A DNA stretch of 63,693 nucleotides, filler included, from Craspedostauros australis (taxonomy: Eukaryota), in the NCBI GenBank assembly GCA_030167865.1. It is 24 parts of 24 records of this genome, joined end to end, with 100 filler letters (N's around TTAATTAATTAA, not from the genome) between each part and the next. Parts side by side here need not be neighbours in the genome. Positions count along the whole stretch, not along the records: positions 55,460 to 59,976 come from JALAGF010002344.1; 23 more parts are not named here. One strand, given 5' to 3'. The position numbers and the translations under genes were made by a program. Shown here piece by piece: positions 23,799-60,076 of this stretch; within the stretch, counting starts at the first letter, position 1, and every line of letters begins with the position of its first letter. The notes under the pieces are model-generated. The model was not told where the DNA came from, made no database searches, and worked only from the letters and a program-made list of their open reading frames with translations.

Positions 23799-24795
23799 TC
23801 AAGGTGAGCTTGCCGAAGGACATGTCGGAAAATTGCTGGATGAAGTTTGGCGACTTGCCCAGGCAGTTGTCGATGATATCCTGCCGCGGGACGCTCGTCG
23901 CGCCGCTGTTGGTCAGAACGCGGATGATGAGGAAGGTCTTGTCGCCCATCGCAAGTTGCGAGGGCAGGTCTTCGAGCTGACGAGAGGTGTCGGAATCTCT
24001 GAGCCTGCGGTTGCTGGTCTCAACGCCGTTGATGTCGATGGCCATGTCCTCGATGGTCTTGCCTTCCGGCAGTCGGAGGGTGTAGTCATCGTTGTTCATG
24101 ACGGCACCCTCGATGAAGAGGGTGTGCATGGCCAGGGGGGATGGGACGACGTCATTCTCGTCGATCCATTCTGGCGTCAATCCCTCGATGTTGAGGTGGA
24201 CTCCTCCGAACTTTGCGGCGTCGACTCCGTGCAGCTTGCACTTGGCCACACGGGATGGTGCGCGGTCCCTGTACGAAACATGCCTTTGCGTGATGACACA
24301 TGGCGCTAGCAGCGTGTACTCCTGCCGGTGAAGTGATGGTTTAGCAGTGAGAGTGTGGCAATGCGAGAGAGAGTGAGAGAGACATGTTTTAGATCGTAGG
24401 GACAGAGAAGAGGAGAGAGTGAGAATGGCCATCGACGTCGAGCGCATCGGAATTCTCCATCAAATGACATGGCATGGCATGAAGCATTGGTGATGTATTT
24501 GATGTGTTTGATGGGTGGATCTGCTGATGTGCGAGCTTCATTTGTTGTCATCTGTCCGTCGATTGATGGATCATCGCAGCGCATCATGGACATCCTTTTG
24601 CATGTGGCCCATGTTGACTCCATGTTGATTCCATGGCGGTGCCATGTTGATTCCAGCATTGGAACCACCATCGTCCTCCACATGGTTCGCAGTTTCGGCA
24701 TGCATCACATGGTGGTGGCTTACCTCGGCTGCAACAAAGGCAGCACTCCAGGCGGAGCTCATGGCGAGCAAAGATGATGCGGCGAACAGCTTCAT
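23799..24795 (-). CDS. 5' part of a secreted M11 (gametolysin-like) metallopeptidase; exon 1 24795-24724, intron 24723-24322, exon 2 24321-23799 (cut by linker)
   Basis: signal peptide MKLFAASSLLAMSSAWSAAFVAAE|GTAAGC; CAG|GAGTAC acceptor in phase 0; prodomain with RRLR; sequence matches the start of the two following contigs. Confidence 0.8.
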
Positions 24796-25717
24796 AGTGG
24801 GATTTTGATGTGGAGCAGAGTGGAGTCGAGTGAAGTTGCGGTCGCGACTTGCGGTCTCAAGATTTTATGACGACTTCTGAGCGAGTTGGAGGACGATGCA
24901 ACAACAGAAGATGATGTCTGCACCTCACCAGCCAGAGCACACAAAACCAGTGAGTGTGGACGTCCTTTGGTGCTTGTTGCAGATGACCGTGTGTCGGTTG
25001 GTTTGCGTCAGATGTCACGCATCTGCGAAGGATCCAGGCTCGTGTGTCGCACAAATCTCCGGAGGTGCCGACCGCAGAAGATCACCAGCATCAGTGCGGT
25101 GGCGGCTCCGGTTGGCATCCACCAGTTTCCGTTGTTGTTCCACGCCAAACCTTCAGACTTTGGGTTAGCTCTCCTCGCGTCCGTCATCACCGAATTCTCT
25201 TCTCGCGTGTGGCGTCCAAAAAGCGTGAGCAAGAGAAACCACAGGGAGTTGTCGGAAAAAGAGAAAATCACGTTTTTTGTGTCGGAGTCTGTTCGCAAAT
25301 GACAAGAAACTGCCAGTTGCCAGTTCGCCACACGTGATGGAGCGCACTCGATTCGAGATGTTCGACTCATACGACTACTACAAGAATGCCGAGTTGGTTC
25401 ACGAGAGCAAACGATCATTTCTGAGTCCCGCATTGTTGCGGGTGTGGAGATGGGATTTCCTCGCTGCGGCATTGTTTTGGTGTTGCTCATTCTCGTCACA
25501 CTTTGCTGCGGTGGTCCGGAAAAAGCACCGTCTTCTTGGTTGGCAGAACAAGTCCTTGTCTTCTGGTTTGTTGGCTTGTACTACTGTTATATTGAACTCA
25601 TCAAAAGCCCACCAGGGNNNNNNNNNNNNNNNNNNNNNNNNNNNNNNNNNNNNNNNNNNNNTTAATTAATTAANNNNNNNNNNNNNNNNNNNNNNNNNNN
25701 NNNNNNNNNNNNNNNNN

Positions 25718-28460: not shown

Positions 28461-31168
28461 ACCTCAACATCGAGGGATTGACGCCAGAATGGATCGACGA
28501 GAATGACGTCGTCCCATCCCCCCTGGCCATGCACACCCTCTTCATCGAGGGTGCCGTCATGAACAACGATGACTACACCCTCCGACTGCCGGAAGGCAAG
28601 ACCATCGAGGACATGGCCATCGACATCAACGGCGTTGAGACCAGCAACCGCAGGCTCAGAGATTCCGACACCTCTCGTCAGCTCGAAGACCTGCCCTCGC
28701 AACTTGCGATGGGCGACAAGACCTTCCTCATCATCCGCGTTCTGACCAACAGCGGCGCGACGAGCGTCCCGCGGCAGGATATCATCGACAACTGCCTGGG
28801 CAAGTCGCCAAACTTCATCCAGCAATTTTCCGACATGTCCTTCGGCAAGCTCACCTTGATGGCGGAAAACACCAACGGATCTTCCGATGGCATTCTGGAC
28901 ATCACCATCGCGCGTGCAATCAACGGTGCAAACGGGGACAGCATCGAAGCGGATGTCACCACAGCCCTCGCCAACATTGGCATTGACGAAGACACCTACG
29001 ATCATCTCCTTTACACCTTCCCGTATGGTTCCATCAGCGGCGGCGATGTGGACTGGCTTGGTAAGCCCACCGAGTTTGTCTGTATGCTGTCGTGACGTAG
29101 TGTTTGTTTGTTTGTTTGTTTGTTTGTTTGTTTGTTTCGCTTGGCTTGGTTTCACTTCACCGTTGGTGGCTCGCCTGCGCCATGTGCATTTGCCAACACC
29201 AAGGGAGGCCCGCTTTGTTCTTCACGATGCAAACACCACGCACACCTTCTCACCCTCCTCACAAACCATGCTACTACATGCCAACATGTGCGCGCTTTGG
29301 TATTGCGCGAATATTCCACTCTCACTGTTCCAATCTCTGCTCCCTTCGATAATAAATGGGCTTGCTCCTGTCGCAGCCTACGCAGATACACCGGGTTCCA
29401 TCACTGTCTACAACGGCATCAACGACCCCCCTGGCGAGCACCACCTTTACGACATATCCACCATCACCCACGAAATCGGACACAACTACAACCTTGATCA
29501 CAGTAGTCAAGGAGGAGAGGAATATGGTGACACCTCGTAAGTGCTCTGCCTTCCTGCGTCGGCTTCGTCTTGAATGTGGTTGGGTGTGCAATTCATTCAC
29601 ACGTGAGCTCGCCATGCAATTTTTGCATCGGATGGGCGCGAGCCAGTCCAACTCCAGGAATGGATGCTCTCTACCATTCTGCCTCCCCTATGCGTATGTG
29701 CGCACAAACCACAAACCCCATCATGCCACCTCCTCACCGTGTGCTTTTCTCTTCGTCTTGCTCCCCTTCGTCCTATTCCTTCATGTACTCCTCGAATAAC
29801 CATCGCGATCAACCATTTTGGGGCATCTTCTTCGCTTTCCAGTGGCATAATGGGTGGCGCTATCGGCGTACAGGACAGTTTGGACGAGATCAAAGGCTAC
29901 AACGGTACGTCGCCTGCCAGAACAAAATGAACAAATGCACGGGTGCTCCTGCCTCCAAAAATGCCTGCGAATAACTACGTGTCTGGTCTGCTCGCAGGCA
30001 ACTGTCTTCCTCCCACTTCGCTGATCACTCCTCTCACCCATTCGCAATGTCGTCACCGCTTTGCCCCGAACATTCGTTCCTCGCCACTCGTTTCGTGGCA
30101 ACGGAACCGCCGTGGCTGTTCCATGCTCACACTATTTGAACATCAACGGTCACGCCGACGATCATCACATCATATCTGCTGTCGCGTTTTCATCGTGCAC
30201 TGCAACCAAACAGGAGCCAAGAGCTTCGAGATTGGCTGGTATTCTGACCGAATGCTCGACCTGACTTCGGCGGGCGATAGCTACGAAGGCGTGATGTGCG
30301 GCGTGGTCGACTACAACCCATCCGACACCAGCTACATCGTGGGCCTCAGAATCAGAGATACGGGCAACTCGCAGGACTACTACGTCGCTTTCAACAGGGC
30401 CTCTGGCTTCAACAAAGACAGCACCGAAGGCAGGAACCAGGTTCTCGTGACGACAGCCCCGGCCTTCACTGGCACCACTACACAGTCCGTGTTGCTGTCG
30501 AGGCTCGACGCAGGAGGTTCGTTCAGAAACGCCGACCCATCGTCGCTCGGTGGCATCAGCGTGTACGTGGACAGCATCGACCGTCTCTTCGTCAACGACA
30601 GGGTTTGCGCGACCGTCAAGGTCCAGTATGGCGAATTCTCTCCAGCGGCAACATCCGCGCCGAGTGCCTCCCCAGCGCTAACCAACGCTGCGCAAGCGTG
30701 GTATAGCACAACCGTGACAGACACATTCACCAATGTCATCGAATCGTTCCGATTCGACCTGACCATCACTGCTGATGTGAGAATCACGGGCATGCGGTTG
30801 ATCTTGGCCAACCGCTCGCAACAGGCATACTCCATCTATTTCCGGTCCAGCACCTGGAATGCCGATGGAACCTGGATGCAGATTGCCTCTGGTAACATCA
30901 TGCCCGAAGGCCTCGGTCGGTTCACTGACGAGATCACATTCAACGCCCCGATTGAATTGTCCGCCGCTGACGGTACTGTTGCGTTCCGCATCGACTCGCC
31001 AACCAAACTTCTGACTGAGTTTCAAAATACCTTCGCGGCTCATCCAGCCAACGGTTTCAGCTGTCCAAACTGCCCATTCAATGTCTTCTACGGACAAGCT
31101 GGCGTAGTTGCATCCGATAGCCAGAACAACTCTTTTGATTTTGCCGGATATCCTTTCGTCGGAGCCAT
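28461..31168 (+). CDS. M11 gametolysin-like metzincin, copy B (partial); exons 28461-29060, 29377-29536, 29843-29904, 30214-31168
   Basis: HEIGHNYNLDH...EYGDTSGIMG; same exon structure as copy A; longer (TTTG)n in intron 1 at about 29101-29137. Confidence 0.85.
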
Positions 31169-40931: not shown

Positions 40932-42223
40932 GATTTTGTCGACCTTTACGCTGATGGCGCGCTGACATCCGATATGGCCTTGGCCATGGCATCGGCTGTG
41001 ATCGTCGCCATCGCCATCATGGTCCACACCCGCAGTCCCTTCATCACATTGATTGGCCTGGTGCAGATCATGTTCAGCTTCCCACTGTCCTTCTTCGTCT
41101 ACAGCCTGATCCTTGGGCTGGAGTTCTTCCCATTCTTGAATTTCCTCGGCATGTTCGTCATCTTCGGACTTGGTGCTGACGACGTAAGTACTACATGGCC
41201 TCATACTCGTGTCATGGACGCACGATGAAGGANCCAAGANATTGCATATNCNCTGANAGCTCACNCAATCTTGTATCTAACCAATCGCATATGCTGTTCT
41301 GTTCATTCCATGTCACCGCTCTACCGCCATTGNATCTANCCACACCATCNCCATACCGCCATGCCGTCGTGCCATATTTGCATGCCACGCAACAATACTC
41401 TCAACGCGTATAAATGGAACACACGCACGCACACGCATGCACACGCATGCACACGCACGCACACAGGTCTTCGTTGCCATGGACAAGTGGAAGAATTCCC
41501 GCCTGGATCACCCCAACGTATCCACCGAAGACATTGCGGCTATGGCGCTGCCAGATGCTGCGTCTGCGATGTTCCTCACCACGGTCACCACCGCAGTCGC
41601 CTTCTTCGCCACCGCCATCTGCCCCGTCGCGCCAGTCAAGATGTTCGCGATCTTCTGCGGTCTCCTCGTCCTCCTCGATTACTTCCTCAACGTGCTACTG
41701 GTTTTCCCAGCCCTCTGCATGTATGACATCGCTATCCAAGAGAAGGGCGATCAGGTCCATTGCTGCATTCACTCCAATCATTGCTGCAACCTGTGCTGCC
41801 GCAAGAACGGTGGGGACAACGACAACGAAGCGGACCCAGAGACCTCCTCGCAACGTGAGGACAAGGCAGAGCGCAACGGCGACAGCCTTCACGATTCCAA
41901 CAACGATGCTGTTGACCATGGCGAACATGAACATGAAGATTCATCCCTCATTCGACGAGCCCTGCTGGGGCTGTTCCACATCCTGAAGCGTGGAAAGTGG
42001 CCGATCTTCGCGCTCTCCATGATTGCGCTTGTGGTGACCGCCATCTTCGCAGCACAGCTGGACCTCCCAACCTCTTCGGATGTCCGCGTTCTGGGAGATG
42101 ACGTCGAGTTTGAGCAGGCGTACTCCTGGCGACAGGAGCTTCTATACGATCAGCTCGATAGGGCAGAAGGCAGCGTCGCTTACATCATTTGGGGCGTCAA
42201 GCCCGCAGACACCGGCAACCACA
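40932..42223 (+). CDS. Dispatched/Patched-like RND sterol-sensing-domain protein, internal exons 40932-41183 and 41467-42223 (copy 1)
   Basis: FPFLNFLGMFVIFGLGADD|VFVAMDKWK (GxxxDD), AMFLTTVTTAVAF, FAIFCGLLV...VFPAL; GT-AG intron. Confidence 0.9.
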
Positions 42224-42372
42224 GTAAGTGAACCTCGTGACTTCGTGCGAAGAGATCCTGGCCAGCGTTTCTNNNNNNNNNNNNNNNNNNNNNNNNNNNN
42301 NNNNNNNNNNNNNNNNTTAATTAATTAANNNNNNNNNNNNNNNNNNNNNNNNNNNNNNNNNNNNNNNNNNNN

Positions 42373-43640
42373 GATTTTGTCGACCTTTACGCTGATGGCG
42401 CGCTGACATCCGATATGGCCTTGGCCATGGCATCGGCTGTGATCGTCGCCATCGCCATCATGGTCCACACCCGCAGTCCCTTCATCACATTGATTGGCCT
42501 GGTGCAGATCATGTTCAGCTTCCCACTGTCCTTCTTCGTCTACAGCCTGATCCTTGGGCTGGAGTTCTTCCCATTCTTGAATTTCCTCGGCATGTTCGTC
42601 ATCTTCGGACTTGGTGCTGACGACGTAAGTACTACATGGCCTCATACTCGTGTCATGGACGCACGATGAAGGANCCAAGANATTGCATATNCNCTGANAG
42701 CTCACNCAATCTTGTATCTAACCAATCGCATATGCTGTTCTGTTCATTCCATGTCACCGCTCTACCGCCATTGNATCTANCCACACCATCNCCATACCGC
42801 CATGCCGTCGTGCCATATTTGCATGCCACGCAACAATACTCTCAACGCGTATAAATGGAACACACGCACGCACACGCACACAGGTCTTCGTTGCCATGGA
42901 CAAGTGGAAGAATGCCCGCCTGGATCACCCCAACGTATCCACCGAAGACATTGCGGCTATGGCGCTACCAGATGCTGCGTCTGCGATGTTCCTCACCACG
43001 GTCACCACCGCAGTCGCCTTCTTCGCCACCGCCATCTGCCCCGTCGCGCCAGTCAAGATGTTCGCGATCTTCTGCGGTCTCCTCGTCCTCCTCGATTACT
43101 TCCTCAACGTGCTACTGGTTTTCCCAGCCCTCTGCATGTATGACATCGCTATCCAAGAGAAGGGCGATCAGGTCCATTGCTGCATTCACTCCAATCATTG
43201 CTGCAACCTGTGCTGCCGCAAGAACGGTGGGGACAACGACAACGAAGCGGACCCAGAGACCTCCTCGCAACGTGAGGACAAGGCAGAGCGCAACGGCGAC
43301 AGCCTTCACGATTCCAACAACGATGCTGTTGACCATGGCGAACATGAACATGAAGATTCATCCCTCATTCGACGAGCCCTGCTGGGGCTGTTCCACATCC
43401 TGAAGCGTGGAAAGTGGCCGATCTTCGCGCTCTCCATGATTGCGCTTGTGGTGACCGCCATCTTCGCAGCACAGCTGGACCTCCCAACCTCTTCGGATGT
43501 CCGCGTTCTGGGAGATGACGTCGAGTTTGAGCAGGCGTACTCCTGGCGACAGGAGCTTCTATACGATCAGCTCGATAGGGCAGAAGGCAGCGTCGCTTAC
43601 ATCATTTGGGGCGTCAAGCCCGCAGACACCGGCAACCACA
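42373..43640 (+). CDS. Dispatched/Patched-like protein, near-identical copy 2 (probable allele); exons 42373-42624 and 42884-43640
   Basis: same contig ends as copy 1; differs by a shorter CACG/CA intron repeat, one S/A change (KNS vs KNA) and a silent CTG/CTA. Confidence 0.9.
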
Positions 43641-43789
43641 GTAAGTGAACCTCGTGACTTCGTGCGAAGAGATCCTGGCCAGCGTTTCTNNNNNNNNNNN
43701 NNNNNNNNNNNNNNNNNNNNNNNNNNNNNNNNNTTAATTAATTAANNNNNNNNNNNNNNNNNNNNNNNNNNNNNNNNNNNNNNNNNNNN

Positions 43790-45150
43790 CACTTCGCGGA
43801 CACCCTCCGAACCATGGGATTCCTACCCTCCAAGGCCGACAATGACATCTACACCCGAGAAGCCGACGACCACCACGAGATGATCACCACATACGTGGAT
43901 GACGTACTGGTCTTCAGTAAGGACCCCATCCCAATCATCGACGACCTCAAGAAACGGTACACCATGAAACAATGCGGTGACCCGGAGTATTACCTTGGCG
44001 GAAACATTGTCGACCTTCCCAAGAACTGGAAGGACAGGGGAGTCAACATCGGACTCTCGGCCCAGACATACATCGGAAACGTCATCAAACGAGTGGAACA
44101 ACTAGTAGGGAAGATCATCCCGAAGGCATCCACCCCCATGGTAGAGGCCTGCCATCCAGAAAGCGACACCTTGGACTTTACAAGCGCTGAAGACGCCAGG
44201 ACCTACCGATCAATACTGGGTTGCCTCAATTGGGTCGTGACCCTCGGGAGGCTGGACATCCAATACGCCACGACGACGATGGCACGGTTCGCTATGGCAC
44301 CAAGGGAAGGACATCTCCTGACCATCCAACGTATCATNGGGTACCTCAAAGGTCGAGAAAGGGGAGCCATCCTCTGCGACCCCAACCCAGTGGACCACAC
44401 GAACATCGACACTACCCTCTCAAGCCATTGGAGAGAATTCTACCCTACCAAAGCAGAAGCCACCCCTGTACCAGTACCAACACCAAAAGGGAAGCCGGTT
44501 CAAATCACGTGTTACGTGGACGCCGACCATGGCCATGACCAGGTCACACGGAAATCCATGACGGGTGTGGTACTATTGATCAACAACACCATCGTTAAGA
44601 CCATCTGCAAATGGCAGAACACAGTGGAGACATCAACCTACGGATCCGAATTGGTAGCCGCCAGGATAGCTACCGAGGCGGTCACAGGCTTGCGCTACAT
44701 GCTGAGAGACCTCGGAGTCCCCATCGACGGACCCGCAATCATGCTCGGAGACAACAAAGCGGTGGTACTCAATACTACNNNNNNNNNNNNNNNNNNNNNN
44801 NNNNNNNNNNNNNNNNNNNNNNNNNNNNNNNNNNNNNNNNNNNNNNNNNNNNNNNNNNNNNNNNNNNNNNNNNNNNNNNNNNNNNNNNNNNNNNNNNNNN
44901 NNNNNACCAAGCCTCTTTCCAAAACACCATTCCACCACATCACATCGAGAACGATATTCCGGAACTCAATCCATGAGTCCGGATACCACAGCGAAACCGT
45001 ATCACAAGCCATAACAAAGAGCAGGACGACCAGAGCAGACGATGATCCCGACATAATGGCCACGGGAACGCAAGAACCATCACCACCGAAGGAAGAACAC
45101 ACTATGAGCGTGAACATGGCAAGGTACCAACAGACCTCCATGAAGTACAG
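43790..45150 (+). mobile_element. CoDi-type Copia RT C-terminus and RNase H
   Basis: TYVDDVL, YRSILGCLNW, YVDADHGHDQVTRKSMTG, ETSTYGSELVA, GDNKAVV, TKPL. Confidence 0.95.
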
Positions 45151-45460
45151 NNNNNNNNNNNNNNNNNNNNNNNNNNNNNNNNNNNNNNNNNNNNTTAATT
45201 AATTAANNNNNNNNNNNNNNNNNNNNNNNNNNNNNNNNNNNNNNNNNNNNCGTATGCGTGTCATCGTATGCGTGTCATCGTCTGCACTTCAGAATGCGCA
45301 CATACGCATGTCAGCTGTTGCATGTCAACCTTTGCTTCGCATGTCGGCTTCATCAACTGGACCGGCACATGCACATTTCAGCGACTGCACATCAGCGTTC
45401 TTACGCATGCGCTTCCCAGGTTTCGCAACTCCACAGATTTGCACATTTTCGTGTTGGCAA

Positions 45461-49309: not shown

Positions 49310-49901
49310 CTAGCGATAACTGATGTAGAACACTGACTAACACACCGAACTACTCTCTGATCTAGTACATCGCTCTGCGATGCGGTCAACATGACTGTGC
49401 AGTCGTGCATTGTGTTCATGTGCATGAACGTGGAGTTGTTGTCAGCATCAACAATGTCCGGAATGGAACGCGAAACCGCATGAGATCCACACCCACATCG
49501 AAGCTAAAACGAAGGCAACATACAGACTGGCAAGAGGAGAGAGCCAACCACACAGGCACCATGCAACCCCAGGTCCAAACGAGTTCAATCTAAAGGAGAT
49601 TGGATGGACAAGCAAGCGATGTGATAACAACACCATGCAAGCAAGGCAAGGCAGGCACACACATGTGCCGAAGTTGGTCGGTCAGAAAACAGAGGGGGCA
49701 GGTGCCAACTCCGTTCATGAACAATACGTCGACAGTGCAAACGTGCTGTGTCGACGTGTAACAGCGCGCGGTGTTGTGTGATGCTGTGATGCTGAGTGAT
49801 GNNNNNNNNNNNNNNNNNNNNNNNNNNNNNNNNNNNNNNNNNNNNTTAATTAATTAANNNNNNNNNNNNNNNNNNNNNNNNNNNNNNNNNNNNNNNNNNN
49901 N

Positions 49902-51601
49902 CAATCCACACAAGCGTTCAGCTTCCCTGTGACATTCCATCCGTATCGTCCCGCAGTGCGAGAGATGGTGTAAGTGTCAACATGGTCTAACATTTTATGG
50001 ATTTTGTTGATGTCGATCGGTTTCTTCGTCGACACCCCGACGTTGGCTTGATCGTCGTGTGCTGGAGCGGCTATCATGTTCACGCCNNNNNNNNNNNNNN
50101 NNNNNNNNNNNNNNNNNNNNNNNNNNNNNNNNNNNNNNNNNNNNNNNNNNNNNNNNNNNNNNNNNNNNNNNNNNNNNATATCGAAACCGTTTTCGAGAGC
50201 CTTGTTGATGCTCAAGAGGTTGACCCATAGCTCAGGCACGTACTTCACCGACTTGAGGAGGATGATTGCAGTATCGCCATTCTTCTGCATGACCTTCATC
50301 CGCTTGTTCCCCACCTTGGTTGCCCTGAGGTATCGACCGCTGCCTACCTTGATGGAATGATTCGCTGTGCGCACGTTGGTCATGCCCTCGTCGTTGTTCG
50401 TGAGGTGACAGGAGGCGCCGGAATCTCCCAACCAGGTGTTGGCCTCGTGGCGGTCGGGTGCGATGGTCGACTTGCGCGTATNNNNNNNNNNNNNNNNNNN
50501 GATCACCATTGCCATTTCGTGGCCGTTGGCATCGCTGTATAGTGTTAACTCGCAGTGGGTACGATAATCACGGACGCCGTTGATGCTCGGATGGTGCATC
50601 CACATCAGCTGCTCCGATGCGATGCTGCTCATTTCTCCGATTAGCGCTTGTTGGATTGGTTGACAGCGAACGCTCTCTAGCATTCCGTTCATCCGGTATG
50701 CGTTGACACAGATGTCGAGTGCGCCTCGCACTCCGATTTGGTGCATAAAGTAGTACAGGGAGCGTGGCTCCACCCCTGTCAGTCTGAGGGTTGCGATGTC
50801 ATGCACTGCGTCGAAGCAGATGAGGGAGAGTTCGGACCGGACGTCGTTTGGTGAAAGGACGTTGCTCAGCGAGCATCGGGCGGTCTCGAACAACATTCCA
50901 CTCGTCTCATCTAGCACCTCTCTGCGTACCATCCTTTTGCCTTCGTTTCTAGGCACGGCACCTCTTGGCTCGTTGGCGAGTTGGATGAAGAAAGGAATGT
51001 TTGGGCAGTCTACGCACCATGCGTAGAGAGGCCCGCGCTTGAGGCACAATGGACACCATCCGTTGTTCATGTCGCGACGTGCTGACTCCTCGATCATGCC
51101 GTCGAGTGCGCTTGGACGGGTTGAGAGAGTATAAACCGGTTCGTTGATGGCGCGGTCGATGTTGTCGTTGTCGACTCCTGTCATCGCCATCTCCGTTACG
51201 TCTGCGTCTTCCTCATCTGTAGTTCCCTCGTGGTACTCTACGACCACATCATCGGGGTCCTCTGTTTCTACGTCAGATGAAAAGAGCTCGTCTTTGATCA
51301 TCTCCCCATCGTTGATAGGGGGCCCGTAGTATCCGTACTCTCGTGGAGAGTGCTTGGCCATATCCTNGGAAGTCCACGCTCTCTCCGCGTTGGATGTTCC
51401 GCTCTCGAAGCTGGCGGTTCCGTCGACGTCGATCGTGATGAACGCCATGTCGTCCATCATCACGTCATCATCGTGTGAAATCACACGGTCCTGTGTGGTC
51501 ACATTTCTGTCTTGGTTCGCGAATTCGGTGATTTTGTTGAGTTTTTCGCTGATCACACTTTCGTCTTCGGTCGCGTCTTCGTTGATGAACACACACATCA
51601 T
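49902..51601 (-). mobile_element. Copia polyprotein fragment: acidic spacer, Zn ribbon, extra helical domain, protease, GAG-pre-integrase start
   Basis: TWLGDSGASCHLTN, VKYVPELWVNLLSI, IHKMLDH; upstream GWCPLCLKRGPLYAWCVDC. Confidence 0.9.
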
Positions 51602-51701: not shown

Positions 51702-53202
51702 GGCTCTCGAGCGCATCTACGAGCAACGCACTGCGCCAATGAAGGCAAAGTTGTTGGCTCAACTCAACGGGATGCGATTGAAGAAGGGCGAACACCCGGA
51801 TACCTTCCTTACCGAAATGGAGGTGATCCGTAACCGCCTCAAGCACGCGGGAGTTAACATGGACATGGAGCTGTACCACATGCTCGTGCTCAACGCTCTN
51901 NNNNNNNNNNNNNNNNNNNNNNNNNNNNNNNNNNNNNNNNNNNNNNNNNNNNNNNNNNNNNNNNNNNNNNNNNNNNNNNNNNNNNNNNNNNNNNNNNNNN
52001 NNNNNGACGCACGTCACATCAAGCAAGGAGGTAGTAAGCGCGAGAACAATAGCAAGGAAGAAATGGCACTCGCCGCCACTGGTGGCTTCAAGGGCCACTG
52101 TCGCAACTGTGGGGCCTACGGGCACAAGAAGGCTGACTGCCGCTCTGCGCCTAAGAACAAAGGTGGCAAGCCCCCAAAGAAGAACAAGAGAAGTGATACT
52201 GAGGACAAGGCTAAGTTCAACGGAAACTGCAAGTACTGCGGTAAGAAGGGACACAAGATCCTCGAGTGCTTCAAGTTGAAGGCAGCGATGAGAGCAGCCG
52301 ACGCCGCCAACGTGGCCACCGACGGTATGGACGGAACAGACGACGTCGCCCTCGTGATGGTCGAGGAACCAATGTGGCTACCCGAAGACGCCGCGGCAGA
52401 CAACGCCGCGTTCGTCGTGGTAGACGAACCCATGTGGATGCCCGCCAGCGACGAAGAAGACGATATCGATCTCGTGATGACCGATGAATCCATGTGGTTG
52501 CCCGACGAAGACAAGTTGGCCAACAACGAAGAATTGGTGTGTTTCCCCATCGACGAGCTCGAAAACGACCCCGTTGAGGTCAAAAATGTGACCAACCCAA
52601 GAATCGTGACAATCGACGAAATCACGAACATCAAGAAAAACCAAACAACCAACACCACCGACATGGCGCACTACGAGTCGTTCATCGACGACATGGCCCT
52701 CGCAACCACCGACGAAGACATGACCGGACTCGACCTCGAAGAAGAGATCGAGTACTCCGAAGAGGAACGAGAGGCTCACACCCCGAGTGTGTACGGATAC
52801 TACGGACCCCCAGTTGCTGCAGTTGAGACCATCAACCGCGAGCACTTTCCATCAAGCGACGAAGACGATTACACCGACGAAGACAACCTCTTCGACGGGA
52901 TCGTCTACGAGGATGAACCCCTCAACGTCGGAGACATCATGGAGAATGAAGTNGCGATGCCTGGAGTCGACCATCGNGTCACCTCCACCATCTACTCTCG
53001 AACCGAACCAAGGACTCTNGTCGATCGAATGATCGAAGAGTCGTCCCGCAATGGAGGGAGCACCGCAGGATGGTGCCCGCTGTGTTTTCAGCGCGGCCCT
53101 CTCTACGCCATGTGCAAAACCTGCCGTAACTCGCCGTTCCTCATTCAACTGGCAAACCCCCCTGCAAGGGCGGCGCCAACAACGATCCAAGACATCATGA
53201 CG
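51702..53202 (+). mobile_element. Copia Gag with two CCHC zinc knuckles, followed by an acidic repeat region and Zn ribbon
   Basis: GEHPDTFLTEMEVIRNRL (Copia gag), CRNCGAYGHKKADC, CKYCGKKGHKILEC, GWCPLCFQRGPLYAMCKTC. Confidence 0.9.
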
Positions 53203-53303
53203 NNNNNNNNNNNNNNNNNNNNNNNNNNNNNNNNNNNNNNNNNNNNTTAATTAATTAANNNNNNNNNNNNNNNNNNNNNNNNNNNNNNNNNNNNNNNNNN
53301 NNA

Positions 53304-55359
53304 TTCTACCAAGATGACTACCTCTACATCTGCGGCCGCAAGAAGGACATCATCATCGTCAACGGTGTCAACTACTACCCGCAAGACATCGAGCAGGCCG
53401 TCGAGGAGGCATCATCCGCTGTCCGTCCAGGCTGCGTCGCTGCCTTCTCGTCCGACGATTCGGGAAATGACGGACAGCTCGAGATCGTCTTTGAGATTCG
53501 AGCGAGCCGTGCGGAGGATGCAGGATCGGTGAGTCGGGAGGTCAGAAAGGCCGTGATCGAACACATCGGGTTGACACCAGCAACAATCGCAGCCGTCAAA
53601 GAACGCACCATCTCCAAAACAACAAGCGGGAAGATCCAGAGACGCCAAAATCGACAACGCCTGCATGATGGAGCGCAGAAGGTGGTGCTTGACGTGATCG
53701 AAAAGTCACACTTCTTCAGTACGCACGATACCAACCTCGCAAGCCAATCCAAGCGCCTGTCGTCGAGGAAATCCATCATCGAAGACTTCGATATCAGAGA
53801 CATGGACTTCTACGAGCTTGTGAAGAGGTGCATCGGTTCTGATGTGAAGGCCGAAGACACGTGGAAGGATGTTGGACTGTCATCCTTGATGGAGCTGGAG
53901 CTGCGACAGTCTTTTTCAACACGGTACAGCGCCACCCTCTCTCCAAACTGCTTCGAGCTCTTTCCAATGGTCGGTGACCTGAAGACGGTCCTTGAGGCAA
54001 CAGCGGGGAAGCCTCTGCCAAGGAACCTCTCAACCCTCAGGAGGCTCGCCACCGTCCCACACGAGAGGCCACTGTCCCAAGCAACCGTCGCTGTCATCCA
54101 GGCCATCGGTGCGCTCGCCATACTCTTCATCTTCGCACTCCCCATTATCCCAGCATACGAAGTTGGAAATGCGATCGCCGATTCCACGGTCCTCTCCGAC
54201 CATGAGTGGGTGCTTTTCCCTCTGATCGTCCCAGTCTGGGCCACCGCGTTCACCTTCGTGATCATTGTCTCGAAGTGGATCGCCATTGGCCGATACAGAG
54301 AGGGGTATACCAATCAAACAAACATCTACTTTATCAGATGGTGGTTCGTGGACAGGCTCGTGCATCTTTGGGAAAACTTCGTCGGACGCTTCATCGTGGG
54401 CACGCCTTTGATGACGTTGTTCTGCTACTTGATGGGCGCTGATGTTCATCGGTCTTGCAACATTTCCTCCTTCATTCGGGAGTTCGATCTGGCGAAGGTC
54501 GATGCCAATGCCTTGGTGTGCAAGCCAATCCGCTGTCGAATGTTCGGACCATGGAAAGATGAAGAAGGTCCCAGCTTGCGGTTCCGCAAGATCCAGGTGG
54601 GACCGAATGCCATGATCATGGGAATTCTCAGCCCAGGCGTCAAGGTCGGTTCCAATTGCCATGTGCAGCACATTTCTGTGCTGGCTGAGGGCGCCCAAGC
54701 ACCATCCAGCACTGTCATCAGAGGCAATCCTGGATATATCAAAAGCACAACATTTGCAACAGCAAAAGCGACATCGTCACAAAACAGCAACAGCGTCAGT
54801 GTTGACCGCGGTGATAGCGACAGCTACCGTAACGGCGACGATCCGCAACAAGCAGTTGCAAGTACAGAGATCGACATAGACGAAAGCGCAATGTCAAGAA
54901 ACGATGCCAGATGGATCATCCTGGGTGGTATGAAGATGACATGGCTGCTTGTCGAGATATACATAACCTTCTGCTGCTTCCTGATTTCTAATATCTTGGT
55001 CCGAGATCATCTTCCAGACTGGAGATATTCCAAACTGCAATATTGGATTATATCCATCGGTCTAACATCAGTACTGCTGATGATATCCAGCATCATGCTC
55101 AAGTGGGTGATGATCGGCAAGAAAAGGCCAGGCAAAGCGAGGGCGGGCATCTTGAGTGAATTCACTGATTGGGCATGCGACTACCACTTCAACCTGGCAT
55201 GTCTGATGCTCGACGGACCGACGCACAATTCGATCATCTGGACTCTGGTCCAAATGGCTCATGGACTGGACATCGATCTGCGATCAAAAGTCTTCTGCGA
55301 CAGCTTCCACCCATCGAAAGTCGACCTCATCACCATTCGACGATCCTTCGTTTCCAAGG
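53304..55359 (+). CDS. FAAL(C-terminal subdomain)-ACP-Pls-type membrane NRPS-like protein, version 1 (both ends cut by linkers)
   Basis: frame from 53304: LYICGRKKDIIIVNGVNYYPQDIE...RPGCVAAF...KTTSGKIQR; carrier-domain GLSSL at 53874; KWIAIGRYREG...RWW...GTPL...LMGA...EFDL; KWVMIGKKRPG. Confidence 0.85.
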
Positions 55360-55460
55360 NNNNNNNNNNNNNNNNNNNNNNNNNNNNNNNNNNNNNNNNN
55401 NNNTTAATTAATTAANNNNNNNNNNNNNNNNNNNNNNNNNNNNNNNNNNNNNNNNNNNNA

Positions 55461-58397
55461 TTCTACCAAGATGACTACCTCTACATCTGCGGCCGCAAGA
55501 AGGACATCATCATCGTCAACGGTGTCAACTACTACCCGCAAGACATCGAGCAGGCCGTCGAGGAGGCATCATCCGCTGTCCGTCCAGGCTGCGTCGCTGC
55601 CTTCTCGTCCGACGATTCGGGAAATGACGGACAGCTCGAGATCGTCTTTGAGATTCGAGCGAGCCGTGCGGAGGATGCAGGATCGGTGAGTCGGGAGGTC
55701 AGAAAGGCCGTGATCGAACACATCGGGTTGACACCAGCAACAATCGCAGCCGTCAAAGAACGCACCATCTCCAAAACAACAAGCGGGAAGATCCAGAGAC
55801 GCCAAAATCGACAACGCCTGCATGATGGAGCGCAGAAGGTGGTGCTTGACGTGATCGAAAAGTCACACTTCTTCAGTACGCACGATACCAACCTCGCAAG
55901 CCAATCCAAGCGCCTGTCGTCGAGGAAATCCATCATCGAAGACTTCGATATCAGAGACATGGACTTCTACGAGCTTGTGAAGAGGTGCATCGGTTCTGAT
56001 GTGAAGGCCGAAGACACGTGGAAGGATGTTGGACTGTCATCCTTGATGGAGCTGGAGCTGCGACAGTCTCTTTCAACACGGTACAGCGCCACCCTCCCTC
56101 CAAACTGCTTCGATCTCTTTCCAATGGTCGGTGACCTGAAGACGGTTCTTGAGGCAACAGCGGGGAAGCCTCTGCCAAGGAACCTCTCAACTCTCAGGAG
56201 GCTCGCCACCATCCCAAATGAGAAGCCATTGTCTCGGTTGGCAACCACACTCATCCAACTTGTTGGCGTGCTCGCCATCCTCTTCATCTTCGCACTTCCC
56301 GTCGTGCCTGCCTACGAGATTGGGAAGTTTTTGGCCAACAACGATCACACGCGCGTCGTCTTCTTCATCGATCTCACTCCATACGTCTGGGTCTTCTATC
56401 CGTTGATTATCCCAGTGTGGGTCGCTTCCTTCACACTGGAAATCATACTCGTAAAGTGGATCGTCATTGGGCGGTACAGGGAAGGGCACACCAACCAGGC
56501 CAGCCTTTACTTCCTTCGATGGTGGTTCGTCGATCGATTGCTACATCTTTGGGAACATTTCGTCAGCCGTTTCATCGTGGGCACGCCTTTGATGACGTTG
56601 TTCTGCTACTTGATGGGCGCTAATGTTCATCGGTCATCCAACATCGACGCGACCGTTCGTGAGTTTGATCTGGTGAAGATTGGTTCTCATGCAACTGTGA
56701 GTGAACCCATTCGATGCCGAATGTTCGGTCCTTTGAGAGATGATAGCCAAGGTCCCAGCTTGAGGTTTCGGAAGATCCAAGTCGGTTCGGACACAACCAT
56801 CAAGGGCATGCTCTGCCCTGGTGTCAAGGTTGGTTCCAATTGCCAAGTGCAACGCATCTCGGTTCTTGCTGAAGGTGCACAAGCACCATCAAACATCACA
56901 ATCAGCGGCAACCCAGGTTTCATCGACGCCACCGGAGCAGCCAACATACTGGACGGTGAAGGGTCGGGCAGGGAGCCGCCAGATGCATCTGCAAAGCATA
57001 GGATCAGCAGGAGCAGATGGATCTTGTTGGGAACGCTGAAGCTGGCATGGTTGGTTTTCGAGCTTCACTTCGCATTTGCCTGTTTTCTTGTGATCGACAT
57101 ACAGGTCGGTAGCGAGCTGCCGAGCTGGAGGTACGCCAAGTTGCTATACCGGCTGCTTATGATTGGATTGGTGTCCAGCTTCTTTGTCGTCTCCACGATC
57201 ATCCTGAAATGGGCGATGATTGGCAAGAAACGACCGGGTCCAGCACGGATGGGAGTGCTGTCGGAGTTTGCCGACTGGGCATGTGACTTTCACTACAGCT
57301 TGGGAGGAGCGACGCTGTATGGACTGACTTTCAATTCACCAGTGTGGAACCTCATCCTCATGGCTTCCGGGATGGATATCGACATGCGATCAAAGATAGC
57401 AGCAGACAGCTTCTGCCCTTCCAAGCTGGACCTCGTCGCCGTCAACGGATCCTTCGTGTCGAAAGCTTCCTTTGATATTGAACAGAATGGAGAATACAAG
57501 CCAATCAGGATCGAAGACAGCAGCATTGGCGCGATGGTGGCATATCGTCCTGGCGTGATCATCCGCAGAACATTGGTCTCCCCGGCCACAACTATCACCA
57601 ACGACCTAATTCACGATCACGACGACCCACGAAACAAGCGCCCCACAAGTTGGGAGTTCCTCCAGACTACATTCATCACCACATTGCTGTACGCCATCAT
57701 GTTCCTCGTGGTGGCCGCCAGCTTCATCCCGGCGTTCGAGCTGTGGATGTATGCCATCAAGCCACAGACTCCATTGGCCGCAGTCCCTACTTTGGTGATA
57801 GGCATCATCGTCCAGACCATCATTTGGCTCATAATCTTGCGGATTGTTGAGTTCATCACCTTGGCCGGAGGGAGGCAGCGCTCTGAACCATGGTGCGTCC
57901 CGCTCTACATGGTATACCAATCCTTGTGTTACTCCATTCATATCTGGTCGTTTGTGTCCACCCTTTGGGGCACACCGATGATGAATGCAGTACTCCGATT
58001 CCAAGGTGCGGATATCCAGGGAAGGCTGCTGTATTTTGGATTCCGAGTCTACGAACCCTCGCTTGTGACATTTGCAGGTGGAACTGTCATCGACGAGGCA
58101 AACATTTCGGGGCATTACGGCGTATTCTCGACACTGACATTGGGAGAGTGCTTTGCGGACGGCGTCATGCACCAACAAGCATTTGTTCTGGCGAGGAGGG
58201 AACCAACGCAACCAGGCGGAAGCCTGATTGAGCATCGTCCAGGGAAGATGGTTGGTGACGATCAAGCACCGTGCACGGAACAACTGCAATCACCGTCCAT
58301 CTTGGTGCTGGTCGAAGAAGGCCGCAGGTCAACTGACCCAGGAGCTGCGCTCGATCGTTGTACTATGCAAGATCTGGACACCACTGCACGATCATGA
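55461..58397 (+). CDS. FAAL(C-terminal subdomain)-ACP-Pls-type membrane NRPS-like protein, version 2 (5' cut, 3' complete)
   Basis: same adenylation and ACP motifs, then three TM-pair/beta-rich repeats (KWIVIGRYREG; KWAMIGKKRPG; GTPMMNAVLRFQGADIQG...EPSLV) as in epsilon-poly-L-lysine synthetase C1-C3; no intron in this part. Confidence 0.88.
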   Translation, partial: FYQDDYLYICGRKKDIIIVNGVNYYPQDIEQAVEEASSAVRPGCVAAFSSDDSGNDGQLEIVFEIRASRAEDAGSVSREVRKAVIEHIGLTPATIAAVKERTISKTTSGKIQRRQNRQRLHDGAQKVVLDVIEKSHFFSTHDTNLASQSKRLSSRKSIIEDFDIRDMDFYELVKRCIGSDVKAEDTWKDVGLSSLMELELRQSLSTRYSATLPPNCFDLFPMVGDLKTVLEATAGKPLPRNLSTLRRLATIPNEKPLSRLATTLIQLVGVLAILFIFALPVVPAYEIGKFLANNDHTRVVFFIDLTPYVWVFYPLIIPVWVASFTLEIILVKWIVIGRYREGHTNQASLYFLRWWFVDRLLHLWEHFVSRFIVGTPLMTLFCYLMGANVHRSSNIDATVREFDLVKIGSHATVSEPIRCRMFGPLRDDSQGPSLRFRKIQVGSDTTIKGMLCPGVKVGSNCQVQRISVLAEGAQAPSNITISGNPGFIDATGAANILDGEGSGREPPDASAKHRISRSRWILLGTLKLAWLVFELHFAFACFLVIDIQVGSELPSWRYAKLLYRLLMIGLVSSFFVVSTIILKWAMIGKKRPGPARMGVLSEFADWACDFHYSLGGATLYGLTFNSPVWNLILMASGMDIDMRSKIAADSFCPSKLDLVAVNGSFVSKASFDIEQNGEYKPIRIEDSSIGAMVAYRPGVIIRRTLVSPATTITNDLIHDHDDPRNKRPTSWEFLQTTFITTLLYAIMFLVVAASFIPAFELWMYAIKPQTPLAAVPTLVIGIIVQTIIWLIILRIVEFITLAGGRQRSEPWCVPLYMVYQSLCYSIHIWSFVSTLWGTPMMNAVLRFQGADIQGRLLYFGFRVYEPSLVTFAGGTVIDEANISGHYGVFSTLTLGECFADGVMHQQAFVLARREPTQPGGSLIEHRPGKMVGDDQAPCTEQLQSPSILVLVEEGRRSTDPGAALDRCTMQDLDTTARS

Positions 58398-58600
58398 ACG
58401 ATTCGATCAGATTCAGGCGGTCATTAATACTACTCAAAAGAGTAGGTTTTAATGCCTCTCTACTTCTCCAACTCTCTTCAATCAATACTTTCAGTTTCGA
58501 ACATTTAAACCGCTCTGCTACCAACAGCAACTCTTGCAAATCGTCTCCGTCGACCATCTCACCAGCCTTGATGAATGACATATCGCCGAAGTACGATAGA
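58363..58600 (-). pseudogene. BTB/POZ-like fragment
   Basis: YLSYFGD...LQELLLVAERFKCSKLKVLIE resembles the C-terminal helices of BTB; no upstream part seen. Confidence 0.4.
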
Positions 58601-58825
58601 TATCAGTAAGGAAATTTTCGGGACTTAGGACCCACTCGAGTGAACGAAGGTGCAGTCGTGCCTGATCGTGACTTAAACTGTAACAAAATAAGTACATATT
58701 CGGAATCTACGCAAAATTCTGTCGAGGGATATTTAATTTAAAAATCGGCAGAGTTTGTTGGAAATCCGGGGTTATTGTTAGTACTGTAGTCTAATCCGCT
58801 GTTAGAAACTGTACCGTTTTAGAAC

Positions 58826-59424
58826 TGTGAGCACAATCTCACTTTCTCTTCCGATTTCATTCTTCATGATAGGCATCTGTCGCGGTGGCGACACAGGGCG
58901 TCCTGTTGTTCCTAGGTGCTTCTCTCCCCATTCATCATGCTCTGTTCTTGCTTCCTTGTCTTGGCATTGTTGTTGCTTGCCTCTGCATCGTCGTAGATGT
59001 CTACGCTCGCATGGTAGGGGTCTGCAGTCCTGAGCACTTGCCTATCACATGTCTCCGTTGTTGATCTCATGACACCATCGTTCCACGATCGATGTCAACC
59101 TTGGTGATGTTCCAAACCTGCGGATGTTCTGATCCTTTCTGATGTTCCAAACCTGCGGATGTTCTTGTCCGCAGGAGGGGCGCGTGCTGTCCTCTGAAGG
59201 GGGTGCGTCACTTACCCATTGGCCTGCTGTTCTGGTCGACGTCGTCGTCTGGATGGTTGCCATGGTTGGTTTGGTATTGGGACCTCCTGATCCGCCAAAG
59301 GTGTCGTCCTTGCGTTACTGGAGGACAGGCTATCTTCCTCACGGTAGTACAGGTATCAATCGCGTCCGTACCCTTAGTCATAGTCACAATGACATGGCAT
59401 ATAAAGGCGTGACAAATAGTCTCA
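58826..59424. mobile_element. Possible solo LTR (~600 bp)
   Basis: TG...CA ends flanked by GAAC on both sides (candidate 4-bp TSD); internal duplication of TGATGTTCCAAACCTGCGGATGTTCT at about 59105-59165. Confidence 0.35.
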
Positions 59425-60076
59425 GAACATGTGACGAATAATATTCAAAGCTGTGATGAATAATGTTGGAAGGTGCGGCAATCACGGGTATTCCAACAAA
59501 GTCGTACCCTCGTTTCCTAACAGTTCGCCACCATCAGATCGCCTACGCAATTTGTGCTGCGGAAGGAGGTGACGAATTTGTGACGGAGCGCAAGGGACTG
59601 AACATGAACGTGCGGAAACAAACGTTCACCGAAACTGACAAGGACGGCAATGAGATCGGTGTGACTGTGTCTCACACGGACTTCACGTTGGAGGAGGAGG
59701 AGGATGTCGAAATGTGTGACATCAGTAATTCCCGATTGTACGGGACTGAACCAAAATAGAGTACAGAAACAACAAATACCCCCCTACCGTTAACGTGGCA
59801 AGCGCATGATCGATCACTCCTGAGCGTTACAGGAGCACGTTACTTTTGGGACTACGGGGAATTTCGACAGGAGGAGGATGAGGCAACCAACGATGCTTCC
59901 AAGAAACCAACTGCAACAGGCAAGAAAGGCAAACCAGCTGGCTTCAAATACGCCAAGCCCGACATCAAAGGTATGTNNNNNNNNNNNNNNNNNNNNNNNN
60001 NNNNNNNNNNNNNNNNNNNNTTAATTAATTAANNNNNNNNNNNNNNNNNNNNNNNNNNNNNNNNNNNNNNNNNNNN

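Follow-up and report, generated by a model that had tools for sequence, protein, structure and literature searches.

We have found that a gene of Craspedostauros australis encodes the C-terminal subdomain of a fatty acyl-AMP ligase (FAAL)-type adenylation domain, a carrier domain and a membrane domain that, on sequence comparison, is homologous to the terminal domain of the poly(amino acid) synthetases Pls and PosA. The encoded protein (P0001) constitutes the C-terminal ~980 residues of what is probably a membrane-anchored acyl-transfer enzyme of ~1400-1500 residues, which would make a single, non-polymerizing transfer to an amine or hydroxyl acceptor. An acyl transfer to such an acceptor had also been put forward in the original prediction on this DNA, and the chemistry is worded here as an inference.

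The window, i.e., the whole stretch of 63,693 nucleotides that was analyzed, is composed of 24 assembly pieces joined end to end, with the spacer N44-TTAATTAATTAA-N44 between them as located in a map of the N runs. The gene lies on a 4.5-kb piece (piece B), and its reading frame is open at the 5′ side because the piece begins there; the missing 5′ end is thus the edge of the piece. The translation yields 978 residues without an internal stop and ends at a natural stop codon (58395-58397), and the motifs quoted in the original prediction were all located in this single frame. Residues 553-1507 of a full-length relative (P0002, 1534 aa) align to the frame by tblastn. The portion in the window makes up the 3′ two-thirds of a gene of diatom type. 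The adenylation core was absent across the whole window in tblastn searches with full-length relatives. From the N-terminus, P0001 consists of the FAAL-type subdomain, the carrier domain and six membrane helices, arranged in three pairs that alternate with three soluble domains (Table 1). An AlphaFold2 model built from 66 sequences has a mean pLDDT of 87 and a pTM of 0.80.

Table 1. Positions, counted along the window, of the gene-bearing piece, the two gene copies and the domains of P0001
Feature	Position	Strand	Basis or remark
Piece B, gene-bearing	55460..59976	.	artificial spacer at either side (N-run map, piece list)
Copy A, 684 codons, both ends open	53304..55355	+	tblastn; on piece 53303-55359, which precedes piece B; 3′-truncated
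Copy B (P0001), 5′-open frame, 978 codons and stop	55461..58397	+	translation; natural 3′ end
FAAL-type adenylation C-terminal subdomain, aa 1-130	55461..55850	+	NCBIfam, Pfam, fold
Carrier domain (ACP/PCP-like), aa 166-235	55956..56165	+	fold, profile, conservation
Membrane helix pair 1, aa 259-336, ends KWIVIG	56235..56468	+	hydropathy; model helices 259-293, 313-336
Soluble domain C1, aa 337-500, two helices then left-handed beta-helix	56469..56960	+	fold, profile, TIGR02353
Membrane helix pair 2, aa 517-587, ends KWAMIG	57009..57221	+	hydropathy, model
Soluble domain C2, aa 588-725	57222..57635	+	repeat match, hhalign, model strands 659-702 (short)
Membrane helix pair 3, aa 730-800	57648..57860	+	hydropathy, model
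Soluble domain C3, aa 801-935, GTPMM and His885	57861..58265	+	conservation, model strands 856-899
Low-confidence C-terminal tail and stop codon	58266..58397	+	pLDDT < 50, aa 935-978

The adenylation fragment is FAAL-like, as its motifs had suggested. The fragment carries GRKKD (aa 11-15), YPQDIE (aa 25-30) and TSGKIQR (aa 107-113); the catalytic lysine, in TSGK, is Lys110 (nt 55788-55790), and both G109 and K110 are invariant across the 66 aligned sequences. The top NCBIfam matches are all FAAL/FadD32-type, FAAL models reaching E 1e-23 to 1e-25 over residues 1-125; the sole Pfam match above cut-off on P0001 is PF23024 (AMP-dom_DIP2-like; 32.4 bits vs. a cut-off of 27). In a structure search with the model, the top solved match is 7r7e (Z 20.6, rmsd 2.2, 120 residues aligned, 40% identity), and the other FAALs FadD32 (Z 17.4) and FadD23 (Z 16.1) score higher than acyl-CoA synthetases (Z ~12-14) and amino-acid adenylation domains (Z ~9-11). 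FAAL-type chains also rank first when the fragment is compared with the PDB by phmmer. FAALs are thus closer than amino-acid-activating or CoA-ligase enzymes in the profile, PDB and fold comparisons alike. However, FAAL-like domains activate non-fatty acids too, and the matches include the loading domain of McyG (4r0m) and a keto-acid module (6ulw).

The FAAL assignment of P0001 rests on the C-terminal subdomain together with full-length relatives, the core lying outside the window. Three such relatives (P0002, P0026 and P0086) have FAAL-type cores, with FAALs as their best NCBIfam and PDB matches. The segment from YGxAE to GEL, where the FAAL insertion is located, has a median length of 60 residues in FAAL-type relatives vs. 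47 in amino-acid-type sequences, a difference of only ~13 residues; the segment could be measured in 44 of the 54 and in 9 of the 11 sequences, respectively. The region is 16 residues shorter in the relatives than in the FAAL 7r7f.

The carrier domain is recognized by its GLSSL motif (aa 191-195), in which Ser194 (nt 56040-56042) is the predicted site of phosphopantetheine attachment and is invariant in 66 of the 66 aligned sequences. A profile of 21 diverse sequences (alignment A2) matches solved carrier proteins at E 1e-9, and the modeled domain resembles ACPs over aa 166-234 (Z 9.6-9.9). The carrier assignment made earlier at this motif is therefore borne out by profile, ACP fold and the invariant serine, though without a Pfam PP-binding match on P0001 at E 0.1.

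Hydropathy analysis of P0001 reveals six membrane segments in three pairs, and the three repeats of helix pair and soluble domain are weakly alike (blastp E 2e-5, 8e-4 and 4e-3), the lowest value being that of C2 to C1. Around C1 the motifs are KWIVIG (aa 332-337), RWWFVD (aa 353-358) and GTPLM (aa 374-378), and later repeats contain KWAMIG (aa 583-588) and GTPMM (aa 837-841). Left-handed beta-helix (LbH) proteins are matched by the C1 region in profile searches, and its modeled fold (aa 339-496) resembles maltose O-acetyltransferase 3srt (Z 11.5, rmsd 3.1, 141 residues), as well as 3ect (Z 11.3), 4n69 (Z 10.0) and, by Foldseek, 1ocx (E 6e-5). C2 and C3 are inferred to be left-handed beta-helices too from repeat homology and strand pattern, the beta-helix matches listed in the whole-model structure search falling on C1 only. 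Pfam Hexapep gave no match on P0001 at E 0.1. Taken together, hydropathy, internal blastp, the model and the C1 fold confirm the three repeats of membrane-helix pair and beta-rich domain that had been noticed in the sequence. A conserved histidine, His885 (nt 58113-58115), is confined to the third repeat; it lies within SGHYG and is kept in all 11 bacterial sequences and in 96% of the 55 eukaryotic ones.

When these 55 eukaryotic sequences were compared with the 11 bacterial Pls/PosA sequences by hhalign, the two families aligned over 613 columns covering all three repeats (probability 100, E 6.9e-55). The C-terminal ~700 residues are, by this sequence criterion, homologous to the terminal domain of Pls/PosA across all three repeats. 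TIGR02353 matches P0001 in two stretches, the best at aa 329-690, with 77.5 bits (E 7.1e-22), far under the curated cut-off of 423.1 bits, whereas genuine members (P0113, L001 and L002) score 550-678 bits. The resemblance to Pls that had been proposed thus holds as homology over three repeats, but not as membership of TIGR02353 at its cut-off. Residues common to P0001 and bacterial Pls/PosA are K332/W333, W354/W355, T375, G386 and D403/L404 in the first repeat and K583/W584, G588, W606, D609, G637, D657, G837, G849 and H885 in the later ones. In contrast, D358, R359, W364, E365, R400, E401, R420 and D878 are conserved among eukaryotes and differ from the bacterial sequences, and these differences suggest that the chemistry of the acceptor site may differ. 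A sequence search with the bacterial protein P0113 as query found no solved Pls-type end domain and returned only a Pls adenylation domain (7wew). An AlphaFold/RoseTTAFold model of PosA, as described in the available text of PMC10522769, has six bent helices and three packed beta-helices, as in P0001, and the same text states that amide-bond formation by Pls requires its end domain.

The low TIGR02353 score and the many eukaryote-specific positions could also be explained if the end domain were a structural element, a channel or a hydrolase, and the protein served membrane-anchored activation and trafficking of fatty acids by vectorial acylation or hand-over to a separate synthase, with the Pls-like part as a mere anchor or as the part that frees the acid. 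FAAL-ACP didomains do commonly load other enzymes (PMC8460268, in the text available). We consider this explanation improbable, given that conserved residues are found in all three beta-helix repeats, that His885 is kept from bacteria to diatoms, that the membrane-domain part is under purifying selection (see below), and that the same domain stands last in PKS-type proteins, the position of a release catalyst.

The distribution of architectures among relatives bears on the substrate. Among the 138 relatives of at least 900 aa, 112 have a FAAL-type and 19 an amino-acid-type adenylation domain, and 7 have no detected adenylation domain; the members of the diatom clade among them are all FAAL-type, none having an amino-acid-type domain. 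The same end domain closes proteins with FAAL-ACP-KS and full PKS modules (P0204 and P0216), and it follows FAAL, FAD amine-oxidase and ACP in P0131, P0123 and P0232. These positions are consistent with the domain removing an acyl chain from the carrier. The protist family is large: one benthic diatom has dozens of copies, and further members come from pelagophytes, brown and green algae, a choanoflagellate, a chytrid, a jakobid and Picozoa. The original prediction mentioned a related architecture in plants; no land plant was found among the named relatives, and the only named green relative is the alga Ostreobium. Proteins of the family are annotated as “FadD21”, “DltA” or hypothetical, because their end domain falls under the TIGR02353 cut-off.

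These architectures also need to be weighed with regard to polymerization. An iterative polymerase like Pls/PosA could use an amino- or hydroxy-fatty acid, or another omega-functionalized and hence bifunctional acid, add it again and again to a free chain, and extrude the resulting polyamide or polyester through the membrane. The whole end domain is homologous to the only characterized members, all of them polymerases (PMC10522769, available part), His885 is among the residues in common with Pls/PosA, and the FAD amine-oxidase between FAAL and carrier in three relatives suggests modified substrates. Nevertheless, the adenylation domains of the relatives match FAALs of plain fatty acids, such as 7r7f with stearoyl or palmitoyl adenylate, the diatom clade is without amino-acid-type adenylation domains, and there is no sign of a second nucleophile on the substrate; polymerization is thus unlikely in our view.

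A second copy of the gene (copy A) lies on the preceding piece of the window. It starts at the same codon as copy B, and the first ~630 nt of the two are 100% identical; beyond this point the copies have diverged (dS 1.24, dN 0.27, 280 of 448 residues identical). The dN/dS ratio of ~0.22 outside the identical part shows that both copies are under purifying selection there, membrane-domain part included. With this 5′ stretch identical in both copies, the joint of carrier and membrane domain on piece B could be an assembly artifact. PF23024 also matches copy A, and in the phylogenetic tree the two copies are sisters with 100% support, inside a clade of 46 rows (SH-aLRT 100%) in which every named member is a diatom. 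Beyond this clade, the relatives with names are other protists, some with polyketide-synthase modules before the same end domain. Eukaryotic retroelement genes and Patched-type genes are found on other pieces of the window. By phylogeny, the gene is thus placed among diatoms and is not a bacterial contaminant.

It would still be conceivable that P0001 is no working host gene and stems instead from bacterial contamination, from a pseudogene fragment or from a chimeric assembly, as the piece is short with an edge-cut frame, two pieces have the same starting base and 630 nt in common, and identical ends are also common to other neighboring pieces of the window. We regard this as very improbable. 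The frame stays open for 978 codons and its natural end agrees with full-length relatives, its dN/dS is low, and it nests among diatom genes on contigs of up to 4.4 Mb. Moreover, the prokaryotic relatives found are only amino-acid-type Pls/PosA. A scan of prokaryotes with a single pattern from alignment A3, [YF][LVA][RC]WW[FW]VDR, returned 11 stretches and two relatives, both of this type, and among 401 genomes from the phylum of one of them TIGR02353 matched in 15, with all six full-length proteins of the amino-acid type. No prokaryotic FAAL-Pls fusion was found with this one pattern and in this one-phylum sample.

For the single-transfer reading that we favor, the following mechanism may be proposed. 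The missing N-terminal core would adenylate a fatty or other non-amino carboxylic acid, which would be loaded as a thioester onto the phosphopantetheine of Ser194. The arm would present the acyl group to the beta-helix pseudo-trimer, which would have one active site, at the same membrane face. Judged by its conservation, His885 in the third repeat would probably be the general base there. A freely bound acceptor would then be acylated once, at its amine (or hydroxyl), to give an N- or O-acylated amphiphile, which the helix bundle might let into or through the membrane. A plain fatty acid is without a second nucleophile, and a single transfer would therefore be expected instead of Pls-like polymerization. 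Diatom genomes each have many paralogues, as would suit diversified specialized metabolism better than a housekeeping lipid step.

To our knowledge, the makers of cationic homopoly(amino acids) in bacteria and fungi are the only enzymes from which end domains of the Pls/PosA type are known. Here such a domain is wired to a fatty-acid loader and, in relatives, to polyketide modules. More broadly, we tentatively suggest, as an idea that is still doubtful, that diatoms and many other protists employ the Pls-type membrane domain generally, to off-load and export fatty and polyketide chains bound to carriers. Diatom paralogues might then make so-far unseen secreted or membrane lipo-amines, lipo-amino acids and acylated polyamines or, with omega-functionalized acids, extruded polyesters or polyamides of the cell surface or of adhesives. 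If true, this would be a third ending of eukaryotic assembly lines besides condensation and thioesterase domains. If the proposed chemistry is correct, it would imply an unrecognized class of algal acylated metabolites and offer enzymologists a naturally “single-turnover” Pls reaction. Diatoms are the richest in FAALs among eukaryotes, with 16 in Seminavis, according to the available text of PMC12820801; this text does not mention a Pls-type end domain, and the supplementary tables of the paper may still list these proteins. In a full-text literature search, a connection between FAAL and a Pls-type end domain was not found in any paper, the available portions of PMC12820801, PMC8460268 and PMC7335047 included.

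The protein can be compared with several known systems. Like Pls of Streptomyces albulus and PosA of Acinetobacter baumannii, it combines adenylation domain, carrier and a ~700-residue end domain in one polypeptide, with six helices in three pairs, three tandem beta-helix domains, the KW..IG, WW, D-L, G and His885 positions in common, and neither condensation nor thioesterase domains. However, the bacterial enzymes have an amino-acid-type (TIGR01733) adenylation domain, whereas that of the present protein is FAAL-type, and its hosts are eukaryotes; identity in the end domain is ~17-18%, and a plain acyl donor would not be polymerizable here. DIP2/CPS1 of fungi and animals is similar in its PF23024 match and as a eukaryotic FAAL-like protein outside classical PKS/NRPS (PMC8460268, available text). 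DIP2 differs in its DMAP1-binding domain and its tandem pair of FAAL-like domains, and it lacks a carrier and a membrane beta-helix domain. The best sequence and fold matches are to FAAL-ACP loaders (the FAAL of Synechococcus olefin synthase, 7r7e/7r7f, and mycobacterial FadD32 and FadD23), and in the loaders of polyketide, lipopeptide and olefin pathways the carrier likewise follows directly after the adenylation domain. Those loaders pass the chain from the acyl-carrier to a ketosynthase or a condensation domain, whereas here a Pls-like membrane domain comes next and last. The fold and profile of C1 match soluble LbH (hexapeptide) acyltransferases. These enzymes, such as maltose or galactoside O-acetyltransferase, serine acetyltransferase and sugar-nucleotide N-acyltransferases, use a thioester as acyl donor and acylate O or N. 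They are homotrimers that use acyl-CoA at three equal sites, whereas in P0001 a single chain holds three unlike repeats, with helix hairpins as anchors and a tethered carrier to supply them.

The 978-codon frame P0001 lies on assembly piece 55460-59976 and extends from the first base after a spacer (55461) to a stop codon at 58395-58397, and all the motifs named in the original prediction are present in its translation. Its 5′ end is cut by the edge of the assembly piece just upstream of the GRKKD hinge motif of the adenylation domain; its 3′ end is complete, as judged by alignment of the full-length metagenomic relative P0002 (1534 aa) over its residues 553-1507. A translated search with full-length relatives found no adenylation core encoded elsewhere in the window. 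The finding is of interest mainly as a lead on the whole family; the window copy itself is a truncated fragment.

Domains of P0001 (residue numbers) and features of other pieces (window positions)
Feature	Position	Strand	Remark
Adenylation C-subdomain	residues 1-130	+	FAAL-type by NCBIfam, Pfam, PDB and fold comparison
Four-helix carrier domain	residues 166-235	+	Ser194 is the second serine of GLSSL
Terminal domain	residues 259-935	+	Three membrane helix hairpins, a soluble domain after each
Membrane helix hairpins	residues 259-336, 517-587, 730-800	+	Hydropathy and model helices
Copia-type retroelement fragments	22151-23311, 43814-45202, 49850-51601, 51739-53250		RVT_2 and retroviral SH3-like, RVT_2, Pol beta-barrel domain
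Weak 2OG-Fe(II) oxygenase match	2217-3104	-	E = 3.5e-5, under the Pfam cut-off; first piece, 16.6 kb

The adenylation motifs had been assigned to fatty acyl-AMP ligases (FAALs), and the database and fold comparisons agree. In NCBIfam, models of FAAL/FadD32 type match this subdomain best (E = 1e-23 to 1e-25), and AMP-dom_DIP2-like is the sole Pfam model above its cut-off (32.4 vs 27 bits). FAAL-type chains come first in a phmmer search of PDB (7r7f, 1e-17, then FadD32 and others). In structure comparison, the olefin-synthase FAAL 7r7e ranks highest (Z 20.6, rmsd 2.2, 120 residues, 40% identity), followed by FadD32 (Z 17.4) and FadD23 (Z 16.1), with acyl-CoA synthetases and amino-acid adenylation domains lower. 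The carrier domain, expected from GLSSL, was also recovered, with Ser194 invariant across 66 aligned sequences, though the Pfam PP-binding model does not reach E 0.1 on P0001.

A word-indexed search identified 795 relatives of P0001 among 8000 scored candidates, the top one being P0002 (43% identity, 98% of the query covered). Named relatives belong to Chaetoceros tenuissimus and Seminavis robusta, the latter with about 30 entries automatically annotated as 'FadD21' or 'D-alanine--D-alanyl carrier protein ligase'. The terminal (end) domain alone, searched exhaustively, matches 1000 proteins at E ≤1e-3, 463 at 1e-10 and 101 at 1e-30. Among the 138 relatives of at least 900 aa from both searches, adenylation is FAAL-type in 112, of amino-acid type in 19, confined to distant matches, and undetectable in 7. 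FAAL models are the top NCBIfam match of the full-length P0002, P0026 and P0086; P0026, the one of the three searched against solved structures, also has FAAL chains on top (7r7f, 2e-82). The FAAL-specific insertion region is ambiguous: the median YGxAE-to-GEL spacing is 60 residues in relatives vs 47 in amino-acid-type Pls/PosA (bacterial epsilon-poly-L-lysine and delta-poly-L-ornithine synthetases), and the region in P0026 is 16 residues shorter than in 7r7f. The end domain is preceded by FAAL-ACP-ketosynthase in P0204, by complete polyketide modules in P0216 (jakobid Stygiella, 4380 aa), and by FAAL, FAD amine-oxidase and ACP in P0131, P0123 and P0232; one of these has an extra terminal alpha/beta-hydrolase.

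P0001 is modelled confidently by AlphaFold2 from 66 sequences (mean pLDDT 87, pTM 0.80), the exceptions being the linker 134-162, the tail 935-978 and one loop close to residue 500. The predicted three TM-pair/beta-rich repeats are borne out as hairpin-soluble units, between which similarity is weak (E = 2e-5 to 4e-3). The first soluble domain resembles left-handed beta-helix (LbH) acetyltransferases (3srt, Z 11.5; 3ect, Z 11.3; 4n69, Z 10.0; Foldseek match 1ocx, 6e-5), and the family profile matches LbH proteins in PDB. The likeness to TIGR02353, the NCBIfam model of the Pls/PosA terminal domain, is borne out as homology. When the profile of 55 eukaryotic relatives was compared with that of 11 bacterial Pls/PosA proteins, 613 columns covering all three repeats aligned with probability 100 (E = 6.9e-55), and the positions common to both groups include His885 in the third repeat; further positions are fixed in the eukaryotic group only. 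TIGR02353 itself, however, scores 77.5 bits on P0001 (E = 7e-22) against a cut-off of 423.1, whereas genuine bacterial members score 550-678 bits. Thus the end domain of P0001 is homologous to that of Pls/PosA, yet by the curated cut-off it falls outside the family.

A second partial copy (copy A) lies on the preceding piece, 53303-55359, which begins at the same codon as P0001 (copy B); over the first ~630 nt, a stretch that takes in the carrier domain, the two are 100% identical. Past this point the copies diverge sharply (dS 1.24, dN 0.27, 280 of 448 residues identical). Both membrane-domain versions are under purifying selection, whichever the origin of the shared stretch. This stretch may be a fork overlap left by the assembler, since elsewhere in the window neighbouring pieces have ends in common without a mismatch (399 nt) or duplicate each other at 97-99%, or equally gene conversion between two old paralogues. 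Contiguity at the joint, about residue 205, needs confirmation on each piece.

Because the window consists of 24 separate pieces chained by N44-TTAATTAATTAA-N44 spacers (e.g., 55360-55459) and is not one chromosome stretch, gene neighbourhood across spacers is meaningless. Piece 25718-28360 matches piece 28461-31168 at 97-99% identity, and piece 23799-25617 shares with both, in reverse orientation, a 100% identical 399-nt end; the three look like assembly-graph forks written as separate pieces. The neighbouring pieces 40932-42272 and 42373-43689, 98% identical over full length with single Ns at matching offsets, each carry a Patched/sterol-sensing-domain frame (41437-42231 in the first) and probably represent two alleles or one contig in duplicate. 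No Pfam model matches the frame at 51739-53250, in which two CCHC-like zinc-knuckle motifs can be read by eye.

That P0001 is an artefact or contaminant seems very improbable. When the carrier and end domain were analysed by maximum likelihood (a quick tree search over 67 rows and 765 columns), copies A and B came out as sisters (SH-aLRT 100%), P0002 branches next to them (support 100), and all three fall inside a 46-row clade (support 100) whose named members are diatoms only (Seminavis, Chaetoceros, MMETSP 'Thal...' transcript). The closest Atlas clusters are also diatom, and other window pieces carry Copia-type retroelement and Patched/sterol-sensing domains. Beyond this clade, every named FAAL-type relative in the tree is eukaryotic (Chrysophaeum, Ectocarpus, Ostreobium, Salpingoeca kvevrii and Gorgonomyces), and bacterial Pls/PosA proteins lie across a long branch. 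Further named relatives are from Aureoumbra, Picozoa and Stygiella. No prokaryotic FAAL-Pls fusion was found by scanning 185,579 species genomes with one pattern, a scan whose two relatives are both canonical amino-acid-type Pls/PosA genes, or in 401 genomes of one phylum, where 6 of 6 full-length matches are of amino-acid type.

What is observed is the order of the domains, the conservation of a lysine, a serine and a histidine, and homology to Pls/PosA; on this basis we consider the following mechanism reasonably probable. The missing core would adenylate a fatty or similar acid and load Ser194; the beta-helix pseudo-trimer, on the carrier's side of the membrane, would carry out a single transfer of the acyl group, onto a free acceptor that offers an amine or hydroxyl, and the product would exit into or through the membrane. 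Homology to polymer-forming synthetases could also be read as an iterative polymerase acting on a bifunctional acid, which we regard as unlikely. A loader or anchor whose end domain is hydrolytic or structural is a similarly doubtful reading. In the text portions reached by a full-text literature search, no FAAL linked to an end domain of Pls type was found described; the accessible part of a survey from 2026 reports diatoms to have many FAALs and does not note such an end domain (PMC12820801). Sequence search found no solved structure of a Pls-type end domain, and the accessible part of the PosA study states that no experimental one exists (PMC10522769). The PosA model published there has six bent helices beneath three packed beta-helices, the same arrangement as in the P0001 terminal domain (PMC10522769). 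The single acyl transfer proposed for P0001 would parallel Pls, in which lysyl is moved from the carrier to a free epsilon-amine.
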